NCBI GenBank assembly: GCA_001802945.1
Contig: MHAK01000018.1
Span: 10,941 to 74,940, forward strand
Reading direction: 5' to 3'
Origin: Ignavibacteria bacterium RIFCSPLOWO2_12_FULL_56_21
GTDB taxonomy: Bacteria; Bacteroidota; Ignavibacteria; UBA10030
Length of the DNA stretch: 64,000 bases
Shown one piece after another: positions 3,306-26,985 of this stretch (its first letter is position 1; each line of letters starts with the position of its first letter). The position numbers and the translations under genes were made by a program. The notes beneath the pieces are model-generated. The model did not search any database, was not told the DNA's origin, and saw only the letters and a list, made by a program, of their open reading frames with translations.

Positions 3306-3380
3306 GGGCGCTTAGCTCAGTTGGTTCAGAGCGTACGCCTCACACGCGTAAGGTCGCTGGTTCGACCCCAGCAGCGCCCA
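3306..3380 (+). tRNA. tRNA-Val (anticodon CAC)
   Basis: 75-nt cloverleaf. Acceptor GGGCGCT/AGCGCCC, D-arm GCTC..GAGC, anticodon stem TACGC/GCGTA with loop CTCACAC (anticodon CAC), T-arm GCTGG-TTCGACC-CCAGC, discriminator A; CCA not encoded. Confidence 0.85.
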
Positions 3381-3400
3381 CATGGAAGCAGGATACAAGC

Positions 3401-3573
3401 GAGGCGCTTAGTCCCGTCCCGTCCAAAGTTAGCGAGACGAAGTCGAAGCTAACTTTGAGGACGGGACGAGGATCCCGTTCACGTTCGCCGCAGGCGAACG
3501 GAACGGGACTCAGTTGGTTCAGAGCGTACGCCTCACACGCGTAAGGTCGCTGGTTCGACCCCAGCAGCGCCCA
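3401..3573 (+). pseudogene. Second tRNA-Val copy interrupted by a 97-bp insertion in the D-stem (probable pseudo-tRNA)
   Basis: GAGGCGCTTAG (3401-3411) matches the tRNA-Val 5' end with one acceptor mismatch. After a 97-bp insertion the sequence resumes, identical to tRNA-Val from CTCAGTTGG through AGCGCCCA (3509-3573). Confidence 0.6.
3412..3508. mobile_element. 97-bp double-hairpin insertion element (MITE/REP-like) with terminal inverted repeats TCCCGT(C/T)C
   Basis: Two near-perfect hairpins: tcccgtcccgtccaaagttagc...gctaactttgaggacgggacga and tcccgttcacgttcgcc-gcag-gcgaacggaacggga. The element begins TCCCGTCC and ends GAACGGGA, the reverse complement. Confidence 0.45.
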
Positions 3574-3599
3574 CTTGGCAAGTAAGAAGGTAAAAGGGT

Positions 3600-3800
3600 A
3601 AAGGAAGAAGTTGGTAGGTCGCTGGTTCCCCGCCCGCCATGATTCACCTTTTGGCGGGCCTACCCGCCATGTGCGTTGTCCAGCCTGCCCGCCGTTTGAA
3701 GTGCTCAATATTGGCAGGCGGGCATCCCGCCGTTTTTTGGCGGGGACGCCGTCGGCACCCACCAAAAAGGGTAAATGTAAGAAGTAGGAAGTGCGAGGGT
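3600..3800. repeat. Cluster of GC-rich CCCGCC...GGCGGG palindromic hairpins (REP-like) plus a degenerate tRNA-Val T-arm fragment
   Basis: Hairpins cccgccatgattcaccttttggcggg, cctgcccgcc..ggcaggcggg and atcccgccgttttttggcgggga; the fragment aggtcgctggttc at about 3612 matches the tRNA-Val T-arm. Confidence 0.45.
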
Positions 3801-21410: not shown

Positions 21411-22259
21411 GTGAGTAATTCACCTATACGATTCAAGAATACAGATTGGGCTTTGATTCTTGGTGCTTCAAGCGGGTTCGGCGGAGCAACTTCCGTAGCA
21501 CTTGCCGAGCATGGCATGAATATCTGCGGTGTTCACTTCGACAGGGCGCAGACCATGCACCTTGTGGACGATGTTAAGAAAAAAGTAACGGCGGCTGGGG
21601 TACGATCTATGTTCTTCAACGTCAATGCTGCCGATGCACAAAAGCGTGGCGAGATCCTGGAAGCGCTGAAGAAAGAAACGGGAAAATCGCCCGATGGATT
21701 CGTCAGGGTCTTGATGCATTCTCTGGCATTCGGGACATTGAAGCCCTATATCTCAGAGAATTCGGAAGAAATGGTGACGCAGGCGCAGATCGAAATGACG
21801 ATGGACGTCATGGCGAATTCGGTTGTCTATTGGACACAAGGAGCGTTCTCGCAAGGCCTGTTGCGGAAAGGGAGCAGGATCTTTGGGATGACCAGTAGTG
21901 GCGGGCGAACTCAGATTCCGTATTACGGGGCGGTCTCGGCGGCAAAGACGGCACTTGAATCGCATCTTCGGCAATTGAACATGGAATTAGGAGCATGGGG
22001 GATCACCTGCAATGCTATCATGGCGGGTGTCACGGATACACCGGCTCTGAGAAAGATCCCGGGCGCCGATAAGATGATCAACACCGCACGCGCAAAGAAT
22101 CCTCAAATGCGATTGACGACGCCCGAAGACATCGGCAAGTTTATCGTTCTTATGTCGCATGAGTATGGCGATTTCGTTGCAGGAAACGTTCTCGGAGTTG
22201 ATGCCGGAGAAGAAACCGTGAGCTTCATCGGTCAAAAAAGCGCTCGGTCGCTCGACTGA
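21411..22259 (+). CDS. SDR-superfamily oxidoreductase, enoyl-reductase-like (Tyr-x6-Lys)
   Basis: N-terminal GASSGFGGATSVALAEHG dinucleotide-binding motif; YGAVSAAK active-site spacing resembles FabI/FabL-type enoyl-ACP reductases. Confidence 0.5.
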   Translation: MSNSPIRFKNTDWALILGASSGFGGATSVALAEHGMNICGVHFDRAQTMHLVDDVKKKVTAAGVRSMFFNVNAADAQKRGEILEALKKETGKSPDGFVRVLMHSLAFGTLKPYISENSEEMVTQAQIEMTMDVMANSVVYWTQGAFSQGLLRKGSRIFGMTSSGGRTQIPYYGAVSAAKTALESHLRQLNMELGAWGITCNAIMAGVTDTPALRKIPGADKMINTARAKNPQMRLTTPEDIGKFIVLMSHEYGDFVAGNVLGVDAGEETVSFIGQKSARSLD

Positions 22260-22297
22260 CCGTTGACTTCCCTTGGAACATTCGCTATATTTCAAAG

Positions 22298-22328
22298 TGG
22301 TGCAGGTTGTGCTGCACCACTTTTTTTT
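22298..22328 (+). terminator. Rho-independent terminator after the SDR gene
   Basis: Stem gtggtgcag/ctgcaccac with loop gttgt, followed by tttttttt. Confidence 0.7.
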
Positions 22329-22334
22329 CGTTAG

Positions 22335-22456
22335 AAATTGTCGGATCCCGCCAAAAAACGGCGGGGATCCTGAGAATTTCAAACACGTAGCTTCGGTCGC
22401 TTCCTGCGACCTCGCTAAGTGTAGAAATTTTCGGACAGGTAGCTCAGTTCCAATTC
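22335..22456 (+). repeat. Direct repeat unit 1 (about 120 bp, two hairpins) ending in a 17-nt copy of the tRNA-Phe 5' end
   Basis: Hairpin ggatcccgcc-aaaaaacg-gcggggatcc, hairpin ggtcgc-ttcc-tgcgacc, then gaaattttcGGACAGGTAGCTCAGTT, which matches tRNA-Phe positions 1-17. Confidence 0.6.
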
Positions 22457-22562
22457 GACTGAACTTGCCGAACGGAGTGAAGGTAAGTTCAAGGTCGAAT
22501 TGAGAATCCCGCCGAAAGGCGGGATTGGTAGGACAGAGTTACACGATAAACAGATACATTTG

Positions 22563-22679
22563 GAGATTTTCGGATCCCGCCAAAAAACGGGCGGGATCCT
22601 GAAAATTTCACAAACTTAACTTCGGTGGGTTCCACCCACCTCGTTAAGTTTGGAAATTTTCGGACAGGTAGCTCAGTTG
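22563..22679 (+). repeat. Direct repeat unit 2 (about 117 bp), leading into the intact tRNA-Phe
   Basis: About 80% identical to unit 1. Hairpin ggatcccgcc-aaaaaacg-ggcgggatcc and hairpin aacttaac..ggtggg-ttcc-acccacc..gttaagtt. The inner stem differs from unit 1 by compensatory changes. Confidence 0.6.
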
Positions 22680-22733
22680 GTAGAGCAATGGACTGAAAAT
22701 CCATGTGTCGGCGGTTCGATTCCGTCCCTGTCC
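22661..22733 (+). tRNA. tRNA-Phe (anticodon GAA)
   Basis: 73-nt cloverleaf. Acceptor GGACAGG/CCTGTCC, D-arm GCTC-AGTTGGTA-GAGC, anticodon stem ATGGA/TCCAT with loop CTGAAAA (anticodon GAA), T-arm GGCGG-TTCGATT-CCGTC. Confidence 0.85.
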
Positions 22734-23139
22734 ACGAAAGTCACATCACTCATGGAGCTGAGCGACTGTAACTGATCGGTGACTTTCAGTGTCCCGACAT
22801 GCTTCTAGTCGGGACCCATTCATCGTGCAAATGTCCGCCGCGACTTTCAATCTGTATTCCGCCCACTGCCTACTCTCAATCACGTTTTCATCTTTTCAAG
22901 ATACTCGGCCTCGCCTGCCAATTTTCGCATTCCAATTTCTTCCTTCGCCGCCCTGCCCAATAGCTGCAACAATCGTCCGGCGGGATTTCCGCATCTTCTT
23001 TTCTTTTCGCGTCTGATGGCTACACCTTTCCTTGATCCTTGCAAAACACATCCTCGAGTATCAATCCTCACATGCCGCATTGCGGTGACGTATGCCTCGC
23101 CGGGATATTGCGAAAACATGGAGTGCCATCGTGGGAAGG

Positions 23140-24609
23140 TCAGATCCGCGCCAGGTCGCGCATCAGGGCCTCGTGAACTGGGCCTTCGGCTGCGAGATAG
23201 GACGCGAAACAGGAGGCGATCTCGTCGGCGTGACGCGCCGCCTTGGGGTCGCTACGAGAGGTGGTCCATGCGGAGAGATTCAGGAGTTGGCATGGTTCCA
23301 ACAGTTGAAGAAGATCCATCAGGTCGAGAGAGGCGGAATACTTCAAAAGCGCCGTGCGCGTATTCCTGAGGCGCGCAGCTATGCACGCGGATTGAGTCAT
23401 CTTGGAAATGAGCGACTGTGAAGAGACTGGAAAAGCATTGGAAGCAAGCACTTGGCCTTGTGCGGTCACATGCAATTCGTCCCCGTCGAAGAACGATGCT
23501 GCGTCATTACCCATTGGCGTTCCCGGGAACAACATCAGTCGGAACACATTGATCGCCCGAAATCCCAGGTCAAGCACGTCTTTCAGTGTGCGTTCAAATC
23601 CTTCTGGTGAATCTCCAGGGAGTCCCACGATCACGTCCGCAGGAATGTCGGGAAATTCGCGGAGAAGAAGTCCGATGGCGGCGCGGTGCCGGTGCGTAGC
23701 CTGGCGGCCGATTCGCCGAAGGCATGCGGGATTCGTGGATTCAATGCCGATCGAAATCATCTCTATTCCGGCATCTCTGGCGAGGGTGACATATTCTCGG
23801 TCCACATGTGTGAGGTCAGGGTATGCCTTGATGCTCGTCTGCCGATTGACCCGTCCAAGGAGCGCGAAGATCTTTTTTGCCCGGTCACGTGTCCCCCCAA
23901 AATGCGCATCACAGATCCGGAGATGGCGCACGCCGTGCCGGCACAAAAAGGGAAGCTCCTGCTCTATCAGCGTGTCATCCAGAATCGTCATATTGCCGTC
24001 GGGATATTGACAATACGCGCATCGCGACCGACAACCTGCGACAGTCTCATAGGACACTTCTGAAACGGAACTGATGCATTGCATTACGTCGGTGTTCGCT
24101 TCGTGGAAGATTACTCCTCGCCCCGGTTCTGGGTCGGGGCGTACAGGCATATGGACGATCCGGTTGTCGGTCCTGAAACTGATGCAGTCGACGGCGTCGA
24201 ATGGTTTGTGGGATGCAATAGCTTCGAGTACGCGAACCAGGGGTCGTTCTCCCGCGCCACGGATGACAACATCAACGGCGTTGTGGTGCATCAAGATCTC
24301 TTCTGCGGCCGCCGTTGAATTTACCTGTGGACCGCCGAGCAGAACTCGTGCTTTTGGCAAGAGAAGTTTTACTGTGGAGGCCGCATCGAGGAATGCAGGA
24401 AGGGACCAGTAGTGGCAGGAAAAACCGACTGCATCCGGCGTCCAAGTGCCAATTGCCTGCACCAGAAGGTCGTTGGCGGGGATTCCTGCCGTCGGAATGT
24501 CAAGGGCACGTACACTGATCGGAAAAGCACACCGGCTGTGCAGAGCCTCCTTGAGGTACCACTCTGCCAGCGAGAATCCTTGCCATGAGTGCACAAACAA
24601 GAATTTCAT
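23140..24609 (-). CDS. B12-binding (class B) radical SAM protein
   Basis: 489 aa. N-terminal cobalamin-binding-like domain, then CRSRCAYC (CxxxCxxC) radical-SAM motif. Last gene of the six-gene minus-strand operon. Confidence 0.75.
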   Translation of the reverse strand: MKFLFVHSWQGFSLAEWYLKEALHSRCAFPISVRALDIPTAGIPANDLLVQAIGTWTPDAVGFSCHYWSLPAFLDAASTVKLLLPKARVLLGGPQVNSTAAAEEILMHHNAVDVVIRGAGERPLVRVLEAIASHKPFDAVDCISFRTDNRIVHMPVRPDPEPGRGVIFHEANTDVMQCISSVSEVSYETVAGCRSRCAYCQYPDGNMTILDDTLIEQELPFLCRHGVRHLRICDAHFGGTRDRAKKIFALLGRVNRQTSIKAYPDLTHVDREYVTLARDAGIEMISIGIESTNPACLRRIGRQATHRHRAAIGLLLREFPDIPADVIVGLPGDSPEGFERTLKDVLDLGFRAINVFRLMLFPGTPMGNDAASFFDGDELHVTAQGQVLASNAFPVSSQSLISKMTQSACIAARLRNTRTALLKYSASLDLMDLLQLLEPCQLLNLSAWTTSRSDPKAARHADEIASCFASYLAAEGPVHEALMRDLARI

Positions 24610-24636
24610 TTCAGTGATATTGCTTGGGCAGGATTT

Positions 24637-24987
24637 CTACCAGCTGACAATGTAGTAGTTGTAGTAGTAGTTGTAGTAGTTGTTGTATGCGTGATAATAG
24701 TTGCTGTAGCTGCTGTAACTGCCATAGCTGCCGTAGCTGGAATAATTTCCATAGCTTGTATAACTGCTGTAGTTACTATAGCTCGTGTAGCTGCTATAGC
24801 TGGCGTAGCTGTTGTACTTTTCCGGTTCGAACGGATTATCACATCCGGGAATCAGTTGGGCCCCGAGCGAACCGGCGAGCGCGGCAAATGCAATCCTCCG
24901 AAGTGCCTCCCGGCGTTTCATCGAGGGGGCAGAAGGTGCAGCGGGCAATTCGGTCCCGTCGTCAGGTTCGGTATGTTCAGTGGTCAT
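24637..24987 (-). CDS. Ser/Asn/Tyr-rich (X-X-Y)n repeat peptide with Tat/lipobox-like leader; candidate RiPP precursor
   Basis: 116 aa. Strong SD AAGGAG 6 nt upstream of the ATG; start overlaps the upstream GT stop (ATGA). Leader MKRREALRRIAFAALAGSLGAQLIPGC. Core NSYASYSSYTSYSNYSSYTSYGNYSSYGSYGSYSSYSNYYHAYNNYYNYYYNYYIVSW has perfect 3-residue periodicity. Confidence 0.55.
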   Translation of the reverse strand: MTTEHTEPDDGTELPAAPSAPSMKRREALRRIAFAALAGSLGAQLIPGCDNPFEPEKYNSYASYSSYTSYSNYSSYTSYGNYSSYGSYGSYSSYSNYYHAYNNYYNYYYNYYIVSW

Positions 24988-25856
24988 GATCCGCTCCTTT
25001 GCAAGAGGTTTTCTATGGCGCTAGTGAGTTGAGCCGGGAGAATGGTGTTCAAGCAATGACGCGCTTCCATTGGACAAGGCAGGAAGTAGTGGTCGGGATG
25101 CTTGGGGCCGAGGCAATGCTCCCGTTCCTGGCAATATTCTCGTGAACCCTTGAGGTGAATTTGCTCTGGATATCCATACACGTGTGGGTCCGTCGGGCCC
25201 CACACAACGACGGCCGGCACTCCCACGAGATGTGCAACGTGCACAAAGAAATTGTCCACCGTCACAATGGCACTGCATCGACAGGCAAGCCCGATGGCTT
25301 GGGCCGGTGAAGTGACACCAAGCAGGGAATACGCTCCCTTGATATGGGTATCTTGGTGTTGGCCGAGTTGCAGTACAAAGAGCCCCTCTTTTCGCAGCAA
25401 CTGTACCAGATCAATCCAGACGTGCAACGGCATCATTTTCCTTGGTGCATCGGATGAAGGAGCGATCAGCACAACGCAACTCCGATTCCAGGGAATCATG
25501 TTTTCCAATGATCCGGCAGCGGCAAATCCGCCGGGGAAGTACAATCGTTCTTCAACCGGCGTGGGAAGTCCGAACATTCGTGCAAGAATCTGAAAGGCCC
25601 TCCGGTCCCCGGATCCCAATTCTTCCCTGCTCCAATAATCCGTCCGGACGATTGTCGCGTCGGGTGGTGGGAAACCAATTTCCTCTATTGCCGGGTGCCC
25701 CGCAAGAATGCCCTGGTACCTCGTCCGTCGTACCAAACGGAAACGGCGTGACGGCTGATGCTCGATCACCTGCTTAAGCACGCCGGAAAGCATGAGACTG
25801 TCCCCCAAGCCTCCTATGGGATTGATCCATTCACTTTGTCCGGGCATGTCAGGCAT
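24984..25856 (-). CDS. Glycosyltransferase family 9 (heptosyltransferase-like)
   Basis: 290 aa. N-terminal GGLGDSLMLSGVLKQV motif and overall GT-B RfaF/RfaC-like pattern; 8-nt overlap with the upstream rSAM gene. Confidence 0.6.
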   Translation of the reverse strand: MPDMPGQSEWINPIGGLGDSLMLSGVLKQVIEHQPSRRFRLVRRTRYQGILAGHPAIEEIGFPPPDATIVRTDYWSREELGSGDRRAFQILARMFGLPTPVEERLYFPGGFAAAGSLENMIPWNRSCVVLIAPSSDAPRKMMPLHVWIDLVQLLRKEGLFVLQLGQHQDTHIKGAYSLLGVTSPAQAIGLACRCSAIVTVDNFFVHVAHLVGVPAVVVWGPTDPHVYGYPEQIHLKGSREYCQEREHCLGPKHPDHYFLPCPMEARHCLNTILPAQLTSAIENLLQRSGS

Positions 25857-26985
25857 GGGTGTTTTCCGACAAGGAACCTACGGGTGCAGGGAAGTCCGCG
25901 TGTAGTCCAGTGACTGGTTCGATATATCGTTCGATAAGCCTTTTTGTGGCGGCGCAATTCGGGGACTTATGCATATACGTTCCGTAGTGTTGCTTCGATT
26001 CCAATGGGCAGCCGCCATGGCAGATTCCCCACAGCCGGCACTCCCGGCACTCGGTTTCAGGAAGCAGCGATTGACGCTGTAAAAATGCGTCGCGCCGGGC
26101 ATCATGAAGAATAGATTCCAAGGTGCAGTCCTGGATCCGGCCGTATGATTCCATGTTGTAATCACCCGCTTTTCCGCATTGCGACGTGTGGCCCTCCGGA
26201 CCGATGTATACCCATTCATATGTGCAGGAACCCGAGGACTCGCAGACCAATCCTACGTTGCGATCCCGGAGACTCCGGATAATTCCTTCAAACGGTTTTA
26301 CGTGAGGGAATCGGACTCGATGTTTCCACCACACGGGGAAAATAGCGCCCAGAAAGTCGGCGAATTCCTCCGGAGTAATTGCCAGCTCGTGTTCGTCCGA
26401 ACCATACACCCAAACCATGTTGAAGTTTGGCTGCGATCGTAAATTCATGTTCGTCAGGTGATAGAACAGCTCCAGCGGTATGGCAAGAGATTTCCGGTGA
26501 ACAACATAGATAACTCCCCAGTAGATATTGTTTTCTTCGAGCAATTCCACTGACCGCATGAACGCGCGGTTGTAGGCGTCGGAATCCCGGTTCTTGCCGA
26601 ATCCCCGCAATCCGGGAATCGGCTCATAACTGGAGCCAATCTGACGAATCCCGAGCTGTCGGAACACTTCGATCAATTCCTGAGTCAACAGCGTCAAGTT
26701 CGATTGTACGAGGTGTTCGATTCTGTCTTGTGTTTGGGGACAATGCTTTTTTTGGTGTTCAAGCGCAAGTCTGAAATACTCCGGTCCGAGCAAGCATACT
26801 TCGCCGCCATGCCAGGTCAGGGTCATCGTTTCCCGGGGATGGGCGCAGAGGTATTCATTGATTCGCTGGAAGACTAGCTCGAGCAGAGAAGACGAAAGAA
26901 TCGTGTTTTGACGCTTCTTGATCACGTCGCAATAAATACAGTTGGAATTGCACCGCTCGACGGCCTTGAATATAATTACCGGCAT
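25849..26985 (-). CDS. Radical SAM / SPASM-domain protein (anSME-like peptide-modifying enzyme)
   Basis: 378 aa. CNSNCIYC (CxxxCxxC) at residues 12-19; C-terminal Cys cluster CGKAG...CRECRLWGICHGGC typical of SPASM auxiliary Fe-S domains. Confidence 0.8.
   Translation of the reverse strand: MPVIIFKAVERCNSNCIYCDVIKKRQNTILSSSLLELVFQRINEYLCAHPRETMTLTWHGGEVCLLGPEYFRLALEHQKKHCPQTQDRIEHLVQSNLTLLTQELIEVFRQLGIRQIGSSYEPIPGLRGFGKNRDSDAYNRAFMRSVELLEENNIYWGVIYVVHRKSLAIPLELFYHLTNMNLRSQPNFNMVWVYGSDEHELAITPEEFADFLGAIFPVWWKHRVRFPHVKPFEGIIRSLRDRNVGLVCESSGSCTYEWVYIGPEGHTSQCGKAGDYNMESYGRIQDCTLESILHDARRDAFLQRQSLLPETECRECRLWGICHGGCPLESKQHYGTYMHKSPNCAATKRLIERYIEPVTGLHADFPAPVGSLSENTHA

Follow-up and report, generated by a model that had tools for sequence, protein, structure and literature searches.

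The window analyzed here is a 64,000-nucleotide (nt) stretch of contig MHAK01000018.1 from Ignavibacteria bacterium RIFCSPLOWO2_12_FULL_56_21 (GCA_001802945.1), and the subject of the analysis is a double-hairpin unit, here called the module, which is present in two copies immediately upstream of the gene for tRNA-Phe(GAA). ARAGORN and Rfam reported two tRNA genes in the window, tRNA-Val at 3306-3381 and tRNA-Phe(GAA) at 22662-22735. The tRNA-Phe locus is preceded by an SDR gene, for which the best named relatives, at 74% to 76% identity, were found in metagenome-assembled genomes (MAGs) of Ignavibacteriales and Bacteroidota. Exact-protein look-ups traced the species to aquifer assemblies, among them GCA_001802245.1 and GCA_001802915.1. 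The features are listed below with scores from R1, a covariance model built from the unit.

22263..22291, plus strand: sigma-70-like promoter, TTGACT-17-TATATT, upstream of the array; candidate promoter of the pre-tRNA-Phe transcript
22294..22331, plus strand: intrinsic-terminator-like hairpin (12 bp) with a T-run, terminating the upstream SDR gene (21411-22259)
22334..22432, plus strand: module copy 1 (unit 1), R1 79.7 bits; 9-mer at 22334-22342, hairpin A at 22343-22370 with one additional bulged G, a T, GAGAATTTC at 22372-22380, hairpin B core at 22382-22423 (apex 22392-22413), GAAATTTTC at 22424-22432
22433..22449, plus strand: tRNA-Phe stub, nt 1-17 (GGACAGGTAGCTCAGTT); same stub and junction in loci L016 and L048
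22450..22526, plus strand: alpha, an inverted double-hairpin module (CCAATTCGAC...GTCGAATTG, AGA, ATCCCGCC GAAA GGCGGGAT)
22527..22562, plus strand: spacer ending in ..TTGGAGATTTTC, the final 12 nt being the junction motif GArATTTTCGGA
22563..22661, plus strand: module copy 2 (unit 2), the tRNA-proximal leader, R1 94.2 bits; hairpin A at 22572-22599, hairpin B at 22601-22661
22662..22735, plus strand: intact tRNA-Phe(GAA), on which ARAGORN and Rfam (74.7 bits) agree
22736..22815, plus strand: 3' trailer double hairpin (CGAAAGTCAC...GTGACTTTC, AG, TGTCCCGAC...GTCGGGAC)
3402..3574, plus strand: second tRNA-Val copy, split, with nt 2-10 at 3402-3411, nt 11-76 at 3509-3574, and the insert beta at 3412-3508

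The tRNA-Phe locus consists of two tandem cassettes, the first of which is dead (module, tRNA-Phe nt 1-17, alpha) and the second live (module, tRNA-Phe, trailer hairpins). A repeat search of the window identified a direct repeat of 119 nt, the copies of which, at 22331-22449 and 22560-22678, have 85% identity and a spacing of 229 nt (86% column identity in a pairwise alignment of the two copies). A preliminary description made from the sequence had put the identity at 80%; its raw observation of duplicated units, hairpins, and a tRNA stub was confirmed with only small corrections. As had been suggested, the units represent a duplication of the 5' leader of tRNA-Phe, and both are followed by GGACAGGTAGCTCAGTT. 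Since GGACAGGTAGCTCAG, the 15-mer core of tRNA-Phe nt 1-17, was present exactly twice in the 64 kb, at 22433 and 22662, unit 1 does terminate in tRNA-Phe nt 1-17. The inner stem of hairpin B also read as previously given, unit 1 having GGTCGC/GCGACC and unit 2 GGTGGG/CCCACC, which corresponds to two C-G to G-C flips and four nucleotide changes. However, the loops were not the strict TTCC tetraloops described, as unit 1 has TTCCT and unit 2 either TCC or TTCCA, and hairpin B was far longer than noted, at about 19 bp, with a helix that extends to position -1 of the tRNA.

Beyond the tRNA stub we found a hairpin of about 55 nt (CCAATTCGAC...GTCGAATTG), followed by a GAAA-loop hairpin (AATCCCGCC GAAA GGCGGGATT). 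These had been read as a replacement of the tRNA after nt 17, but while the hairpins are present, they represent a module of the same family in inverted orientation (the alpha element; R1 minus-strand match at 22451-22536, 41.8 bits). Units 1 and 2 folded with z-scores of -7.0 and -10.1, respectively, and the stub region with -7.6, and none of 200 shuffles was as stable; for alpha, the z-scores of the single-stranded DNA and RNA folds were -7.6 to -7.8. The minimum-free-energy fold of unit 2 was the consensus structure, with hairpin B stopping at position -1 of the tRNA.

Homologous loci, here numbered with the prefix L, were collected with two scans. A metagenome scan for GAAATTTTC joined to tRNA-Phe nt 1-17 returned 14 loci, and a genome scan over 596 Gb for the 17-mer GGATCCTGAAAATTTCA yielded 17 true loci, all of which were Ignavibacteria-type MAGs. 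The latter scan returned mostly unrelated genomes, about 70 chance matches being expected, and the true loci were chosen by context. In the 14 metagenome and 17 genome loci, the module was located directly 5' of tRNA-Phe. Each scan fixed one conserved word and left the other word and the register free in its set, and the two sets still agreed; hairpin B ended at position -1 in the genome set too, although the search pattern held no positional information.

An alignment of 29 distinct units (A2), which were split by eye and then aligned, revealed the same plan in all 29: a weak 9-mer, hairpin A of the form GGATCC CGnn-loop-nnCG GGATCC, one T, and hairpin B. The latter is composed of GAAAATTTC, a bulged A, nnnACTTAGC, an apex of 8 to 22 nt, GCTAAGTnnn, and GAAATTTTC, followed by G+1 of tRNA-Phe. 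The helix of about 19 bp ends exactly at tRNA position -1, and the module measures about 97 nt overall. An extension of hairpin A by pairing of the 5' 9-mer with GAAAATTTC was also considered; columns 1 to 6 were mostly unpaired in that arrangement, and GAAATTTTC was therefore favored as the 3' partner.

Across the 29 units, 94.9% of the cells were paired, compared with 83.7% after shuffling, and 13 pairs were altered on both sides. The covariation score was 0.295 versus 0.085 for the shuffled data, with 0 of 500 shuffles reaching 0.295 and slid registers giving only 0.02 to 0.06. The nnn triplets of hairpin B were represented by three to four pair types each. Furthermore, the outer 9-bp helix was swapped for another complementary sequence in L017a (AAATTTTTC/GAAAAATTT), and the outer helix was likewise swapped in L099 (CAAAATTTC/GAAATTTTG) and L150 (GATCCT/AGGATC). 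The apex of hairpin B formed a stem in only 7 of the 29 units and was elsewhere a C/U-rich loop, such as TTCACTCCGTTC. The inner stem in which compensatory changes had been pointed out is this lineage-specific apex, whereas the helix that is conserved and covaries comprises hairpin A and the outer portion of hairpin B. The claim of a non-random upkeep of complementarity was thus borne out by 29 lineages rather than by one repeat pair, but not for the stem on which it had been based.

Such a pattern may indicate a functional pre-tRNA-Phe leader RNA. According to this explanation, the proximal module is selected as RNA and the extra and inverted copies are by-products of duplication; hairpin B would sequester the leader up to position -1 and stack on the acceptor stem, and hairpin A would contribute stability or processing, including processing by RNase P or RNase III, protection of the precursor, or insulation from read-through. 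Besides the strong covariation and the register fixed at -1 in 29 lineages, it is consistent with the retention of the A-U-B architecture in L150 with a different helix sequence, with the presence of a promoter upstream of the arrays in several lineages, and with the R1 scores, which were highest for the proximal copies and lower for the distal ones. In the window, the distal unit 1 contained stem-weakening changes, ACGTAGC for ACTTAGC and GAGAATTTC for GAAAATTTC, where the stems were intact in unit 1 of the L148 allele. However, the module was absent in some relatives (L003 and L149, and partly in L006 and L008), the same module occurs inverted and as an insertion in tRNA copies, and no excess of G.U pairs was found, as described below. 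Moreover, a helix extending to position -1 is expected to hinder cleavage by bacterial RNase P, not to help it. Since the fixed register and the better-preserved proximal copy fit a functional leader, we consider this explanation possible, albeit doubtful.

The composition of the stems bears on the level at which the constraint acts. The cells of helix B comprised 535 Watson-Crick pairs, 3 G.U pairs, and 6 A.C mismatches, and all helices together contained 14 G.U and 16 A.C, whereas selection acting only on the RNA of the tRNA strand would normally tolerate G.U far above A.C. Both DNA strands folded equally well. Because the stems are almost purely Watson-Crick without an excess of G.U, the strands fold equally well, and the module occurs in both orientations, the constraint points to the palindrome as such, and a palindromic repeat family is favored over a dedicated RNA gene. 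The preliminary description took the paired changes to imply selection for RNA or DNA secondary structure; selection for RNA structure is not implied by them.

The highly conserved blocks of the module, GGATCC T GAAAATTTC A and ACTTAGC/GCTAAGT, together with GAAAnTTTC, which is palindromic in itself, might instead suggest an independent small RNA gene or protein-binding DNA, such as promoter or operator palindromes, that is placed beside the tRNA gene by chance. We give hardly any credence to this possibility, since covarying triplets with three to four pair types are unlike sequence-specific half-sites, no promoter of fixed spacing can span hairpin B with its apex of 8 to 22 nt, there was no terminator between the module and the tRNA, and no Rfam family was matched. 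In searches against Rfam 15, the only match was to the tRNA, and the best other scores were 14.6 to 23.5 bits compared with gathering scores of 41 to 90. Nor did literature searches retrieve a description of this double-hairpin element. A specific candidate, a Bacteroidetes-type promoter TTCG-N20-TAAGTTTG spanning hairpin B, was rejected, as the spacing changes with the length of the apex and the final positions of the supposed -10/-7 box behave as covarying stem bases. Coding potential was also rejected: the overlapping open reading frames (ORFs) of 76 and 71 amino acids had no Pfam match, and the indels of 139 bp and 229 bp described below are not multiples of three.

Upstream of the arrays, TTGACT-17-TAnnnT was also observed in L007, L013, L015, and L091, and TTGAAA-16-TATATT in L047. 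It was noted that in the window (22263-22331), as well as in L007, L013, and L015, only a few bases separate the consensus-like promoter from a downstream terminator-type hairpin and T-run. Transcripts from the promoter at 22263-22291 would start inside or just before the terminator stem.

The R1 model identified one to four tandem copies of the module 5' of tRNA-Phe in many loci. On the 3' side, directly beside tRNA-Phe, it gave strong inverted matches in L110 (69 bits) and L091 (63 bits), and inverted matches were also present there in L078, L114, and L016. Arrays of alternating orientation were observed in L087. The 3' trailer in the window is a weak inverted family member (R1 minus strand, 22736-22826, 34 bits) that accompanies the downstream genes in L149 and L150. 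The inverted modules, of the alpha, trailer, and beta types, have in common a long hairpin with a TTAGC...GCTAA core, a GAGRATCC linker, and a GC hairpin. The alpha element starts with TTCCAA in every copy, and its outer stem was paired at 9 of 9 positions in eight homologous copies with six different sequences. In the window, L016, and L048, it comes after nt 17 of tRNA-Phe. L087 has it twice within a unit, L013 has it downstream of a terminator, and L091 directly downstream of the intact tRNA; in L017, it interrupts a tRNA-Phe copy at the anticodon loop.

In R1 and motif scans of the 64-kb window and 32 related loci (about 275 kb, in total about 340 kb), no module was found away from tRNA genes. 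The copies were located only at the two tRNA loci of the window and, in the 32 related loci, only around tRNA-Phe. The family is restricted to tRNA loci, where it forms tandem arrays upstream, inverted copies at tRNA 3' ends or within arrays, and precise insertions in redundant tRNAs. The inverted trailer copy is sporadic (5 to 6 of 28 loci), and a leader-trailer duplex was rejected as a general feature: leader and trailer of the same locus are reverse complements only in L091 and L078, and weakly in L016, and most loci have a plain terminator. A phage or provirus origin was likewise rejected, since in two scans of viral contigs the word matches did not exceed chance level, and neither model matches nor tRNA-Phe were found. 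A GC hairpin at 3724-3746, ATCCCGCC GTTTTTT GGCGGGGA, resembles an inverted hairpin A; it is located about 340 nt downstream of tRNA-Val and is surrounded by other GC-rich hairpins at 3630-3760.

The insertions were mapped by aligning the interrupted copies to the intact tRNA. The second tRNA-Val copy (nt 2-76), which starts 20 nt downstream of the intact tRNA-Val, is split at nt 10/11 by beta, a 97-nt double hairpin with a weak minus-strand match to R1 (3416-3514, 21.8 bits, E 0.07), and both flanks (nt 2-10 and 11-76) are identical to tRNA-Val. The structure of the split gene was identical in six assemblies of the same species; strain polymorphism at this locus was considered and rejected, as the length differences proved to be runs of N. 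In L017, the first tRNA-Phe copy contains inserts at nt 15/16 (70 nt) and 34/35 (alpha type), and the second a 48-nt hairpin at 21/22, while L110 has a 25-nt hairpin at 56/57. No duplicated target bases were seen at the insert junctions in the second tRNA-Val, L017, and L110, and the ends of the element (TTCCAA... and ...GGGAT) were not mutual inverted repeats. Most of the interrupted copies are truncated, including the tRNA-Phe stub in the window and copies 1 and 2 in L017, whereas the second tRNA-Val is complete and located beside an intact identical copy.

Entry into the spare tRNA copies was mostly at single-stranded loops, that is, the D-loop, anticodon loop, and T-loop, and the ends of the modules fall on the 5' and 3' termini of the mature tRNA, which are the cleavage sites of RNase P and RNase Z. 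It is conceivable, though in our opinion improbable, that the modules belong to an undescribed class of tRNA-targeting double-hairpin elements with an RNA-guided or RNA-mediated mechanism, or one that recognizes a folded single strand, perhaps even with intron-like behavior in bacteria, or else that the proximal copy is a new obligatory structured tRNA leader.

The loss of the remainder of the tRNA in the window stub is explained by a deletion of nt 18-76 at a TT microhomology. A GGTAG sequence after alpha was considered as a continuation of the tRNA (nt 18-22), but this is probably a chance similarity, as the homologous junctions in L016, L048, and L087 have no GGTAG. Additional tRNA fragments were observed. 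A third tRNA-Val fragment, corresponding to the T-arm (GGTCGCTGGTTC), is located near 3619-3630 in the window. Downstream of the intact tRNA-Phe in L110 (2165-2411), an 8-nt fragment of the tRNA 3' end is followed by an inverted module, and the same region holds a 3' fragment of tRNA-Phe (nt 40-74) with the 25-nt hairpin in its T-loop.

Variation within the species was studied in ten contigs with an identical downstream radical-SAM (rSAM) protein and two more with an identical SDR protein. Upstream of tRNA-Phe, L145 to L147 were the same as the window, whereas L001 and L002 contained a single module and lacked 229 bp. In L152, gene conversion had brought the sequence of unit 2 to the first position, and L148 and L151 contained an additional 139-bp copy of the stub, alpha, and spacer, joined at gagattttc|ggacagg. 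The variability between the repeats that the preliminary description had proposed to look for is therefore present, in the form of alleles with one module, two modules, or the extra 139 bp. The two units of the window were each other's nearest relatives (83%). All modules and the tRNA start with GGA and are preceded by GArATTTTC, and there are therefore 12-nt direct repeats at every junction. Unequal recombination or slippage, acting between modules and at the 12-nt repeat GArATTTTCGGA, would account for the set of alleles. It was also observed that contigs L001, L002, and L150 to L154 end within the module array or the tRNA; because of the module repeats and their polymorphism, short-read assemblies are broken at tRNA-Phe.

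The duplication had also been proposed to be the att-like scar of a past integration. In that case, the direct repeats of the leader and nt 1-17 would be the traces of an integrative element whose target was the 5' part of tRNA-Phe and which brought its own replacement copy. In this clade, tRNA-Phe is indeed an integration hotspot, with integrase-like or Fic and excisionase genes directly 3' of it in L087 and L017. The rSAM side is common to genomes with different upstream flanks, and in L017 a GIY-YIG gene lies between a truncated and an intact tRNA-Phe. However, merely about 100 nt of hairpins, and no element, separate the two repeats in the window, which lie 229 bp apart and duplicate the 5' leader and nt 1-17. 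No recombinase adjoins them, no further 3' fragment of tRNA-Phe was found in the window, and the island junction is on the 3' side. The units are mutual closest paralogs, and the variants would be explained by homologous unequal crossing-over at the 12-nt and module repeats. We therefore consider an integration scar very unlikely.

L149 and L150 were identical to the window from the tRNA onward, including the trailer and the rSAM genes, while their upstream flanks were unrelated, with another SDR allele in one and an acyl-CoA dehydrogenase in the other. Since they share only this part with the window, the rSAM side behaves as an island joined at tRNA-Phe from the 3' side. To judge from these comparisons, the rSAM side, with radical-SAM and glycosyltransferase genes on the minus strand at 23140-26985 and beyond, is a horizontally shared island. 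Neither an integrase nor an attR repeat was seen in the window, and no second 3' tRNA-Phe fragment was found elsewhere in the window. Conventional 3'-side islands are present at tRNA-Phe in L087, L102, L017, and L011, in which repeated GCTAAC motifs were observed directly downstream of the tRNA. An integrase-like N-terminus (MASLIRRPNGIYYIV...) is encoded 3' of tRNA-Phe in L087 (6940-7150), and L017 carries Fic and excisionase-like genes 3' of tRNA-Phe. A 78-amino acid GIY-YIG nuclease ORF (942-1178; Pfam E = 3e-12), flanked by the intact tRNA-Phe and a copy of it that is cut off at nt 39, was observed only in L017, in a layout that recalls the free-standing homing endonucleases of phage tRNA clusters (PMC2330249).

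Taken together, we favor, with confidence slightly above even, the interpretation that the modules represent a tRNA-associated family of palindromic double-hairpin repeats that is prone to recombination and is co-transcribed as a pre-tRNA leader, a function that we infer. The arrays would expand and contract by unequal homologous recombination or slippage at the 12-nt junction repeats. The complementarity of the hairpins would be upheld at the level of the palindrome, by constraint on the element or the DNA and by template switching or conversion from arm to arm; selection on one RNA strand would be the alternative. The tRNA-proximal copy would be transcribed from the upstream promoter as a fully structured leader and removed by RNase P, and the distal copies would be redundant and decaying.

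Several observations weigh against this interpretation. A register that is fixed throughout the class and a best-preserved copy that always adjoins the tRNA are equally expected of a functional leader RNA. The comparison of G.U with A.C is based on small counts. No enzyme capable of moving the modules, such as a transposase or integrase, was identified, and because there are no target-site duplications or terminal inverted repeats, mobility is deduced from the insertion junctions alone. A promoter was detectable by strict criteria in only 6 of 27 loci, and transcription of the arrays is presumed, since most loci have no recognizable promoter. Finally, because both collection scans used exact conserved words, the conservation of the scanned blocks is partly due to ascertainment.

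The module is a candidate conserved element of well-supported structure, with 29 lineages, 13 covarying pairs, and no Rfam match, that is tied to one tRNA gene across Ignavibacteria-type bacteria and provides material for a new family model. It also calls for caution, in that compensatory changes need not imply selection on RNA. If the modules home to tRNA ends and loops, this could help explain why tRNA loci are fragile, duplicated, and prone to islands. A practical consequence is that the arrays interrupt metagenome assemblies at tRNA-Phe, with several contigs ending inside them.

Among known systems, the processing stems of stable-RNA operons include the RNase III stems of rRNA and the spacer-derived RNAs of tRNA operons. 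The modules resemble these in that a structured leader and, in some lineages, an inverted trailer abut the ends of the mature RNA, but the trailer copy is sporadic and each flank folds on itself, with no pairing between the flanks. Bacterial palindromic repeats include REP and BIME sequences, the Rickettsia palindromic elements, and the Correia elements of Neisseria. With REP/BIME-type repeats, the modules share imperfect palindromes, clusters of alternating orientation, presumed co-transcription with neighbors, proneness to recombination, and variability between strains. However, REPs occupy hundreds of dispersed extragenic sites, are linked to the RAYT (Y1 transposase), and have a GTAG-type head, whereas the modules are two-hairpin units of about 80 to 100 nt with defined ends and are not dispersed in many copies, none being found off tRNA genes in about 340 kb. 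No RAYT gene was noticed adjoining the arrays in the array neighborhoods of the examined loci, where no dedicated test was made. Unlike MITEs, the modules have neither terminal inverted repeats nor target-site duplications.

In classical att sites, the 3' part of a tRNA is duplicated, and the repeats bound kilobases of integrase-encoding element DNA. The tRNA-Phe locus is similar to tRNA att sites in that partial tRNA copies lie beside an intact tRNA at an island hotspot of strain-variable content, but the repeat comprises the 5' leader and nt 1-17 with a spacing of 229 bp, and no ORF matching a protein family lies between the copies. Integron attC sites are defined by the outer boxes R'' (RYYYAAC) and R' (GTTRRRY), in which the GTT of the crossover point is conserved. 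ACTTAAC/GTTAAGT was found only in a minority of the units, whereas most have ACTTAGC/GCTAAGT, so that most units lack the GTT, and both boxes lie inside the helix rather than at its ends.

Short structured inserts in the D-, anticodon, and T-loops are also known from the non-canonical tRNA introns of archaea (PMC4033280, PMC3978253). Such introns are bounded by a bulge-helix-bulge motif and interrupt an otherwise complete tRNA gene that is the sole functional copy. The modules form similar loop inserts, but the host is bacterial, the interrupted copies are truncated or located beside an intact copy, and the same inserts are present outside tRNAs. Neither a bulge-helix-bulge motif, for which no formal search was made, nor a splicing endonuclease was noted.

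Closest in kind are the repetitive hairpin-forming and double-hairpin elements of sponge and fungal mitochondria, which are short repeats of one to three hairpins whose stems are conserved and whose loops vary (PMC2800124). These are non-coding and intergenic, often located 5' of tRNA genes, and inserted in structural RNA genes, and their mobility has been inferred from their distribution (PMC2800124). All of these descriptive features are shared by the modules, which we take as a resemblance and not as homology. Unlike the mitochondrial elements, the modules reside in free-living bacteria, are confined to the flanks of tRNA genes and to spare tRNA copies, have one copy fixed at tRNA position -1 throughout the class, and have stems that covary strongly between lineages. 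If they do home to the ends and loops of tRNAs, they would represent a bacterial counterpart of the mitochondrial double-hairpin elements.

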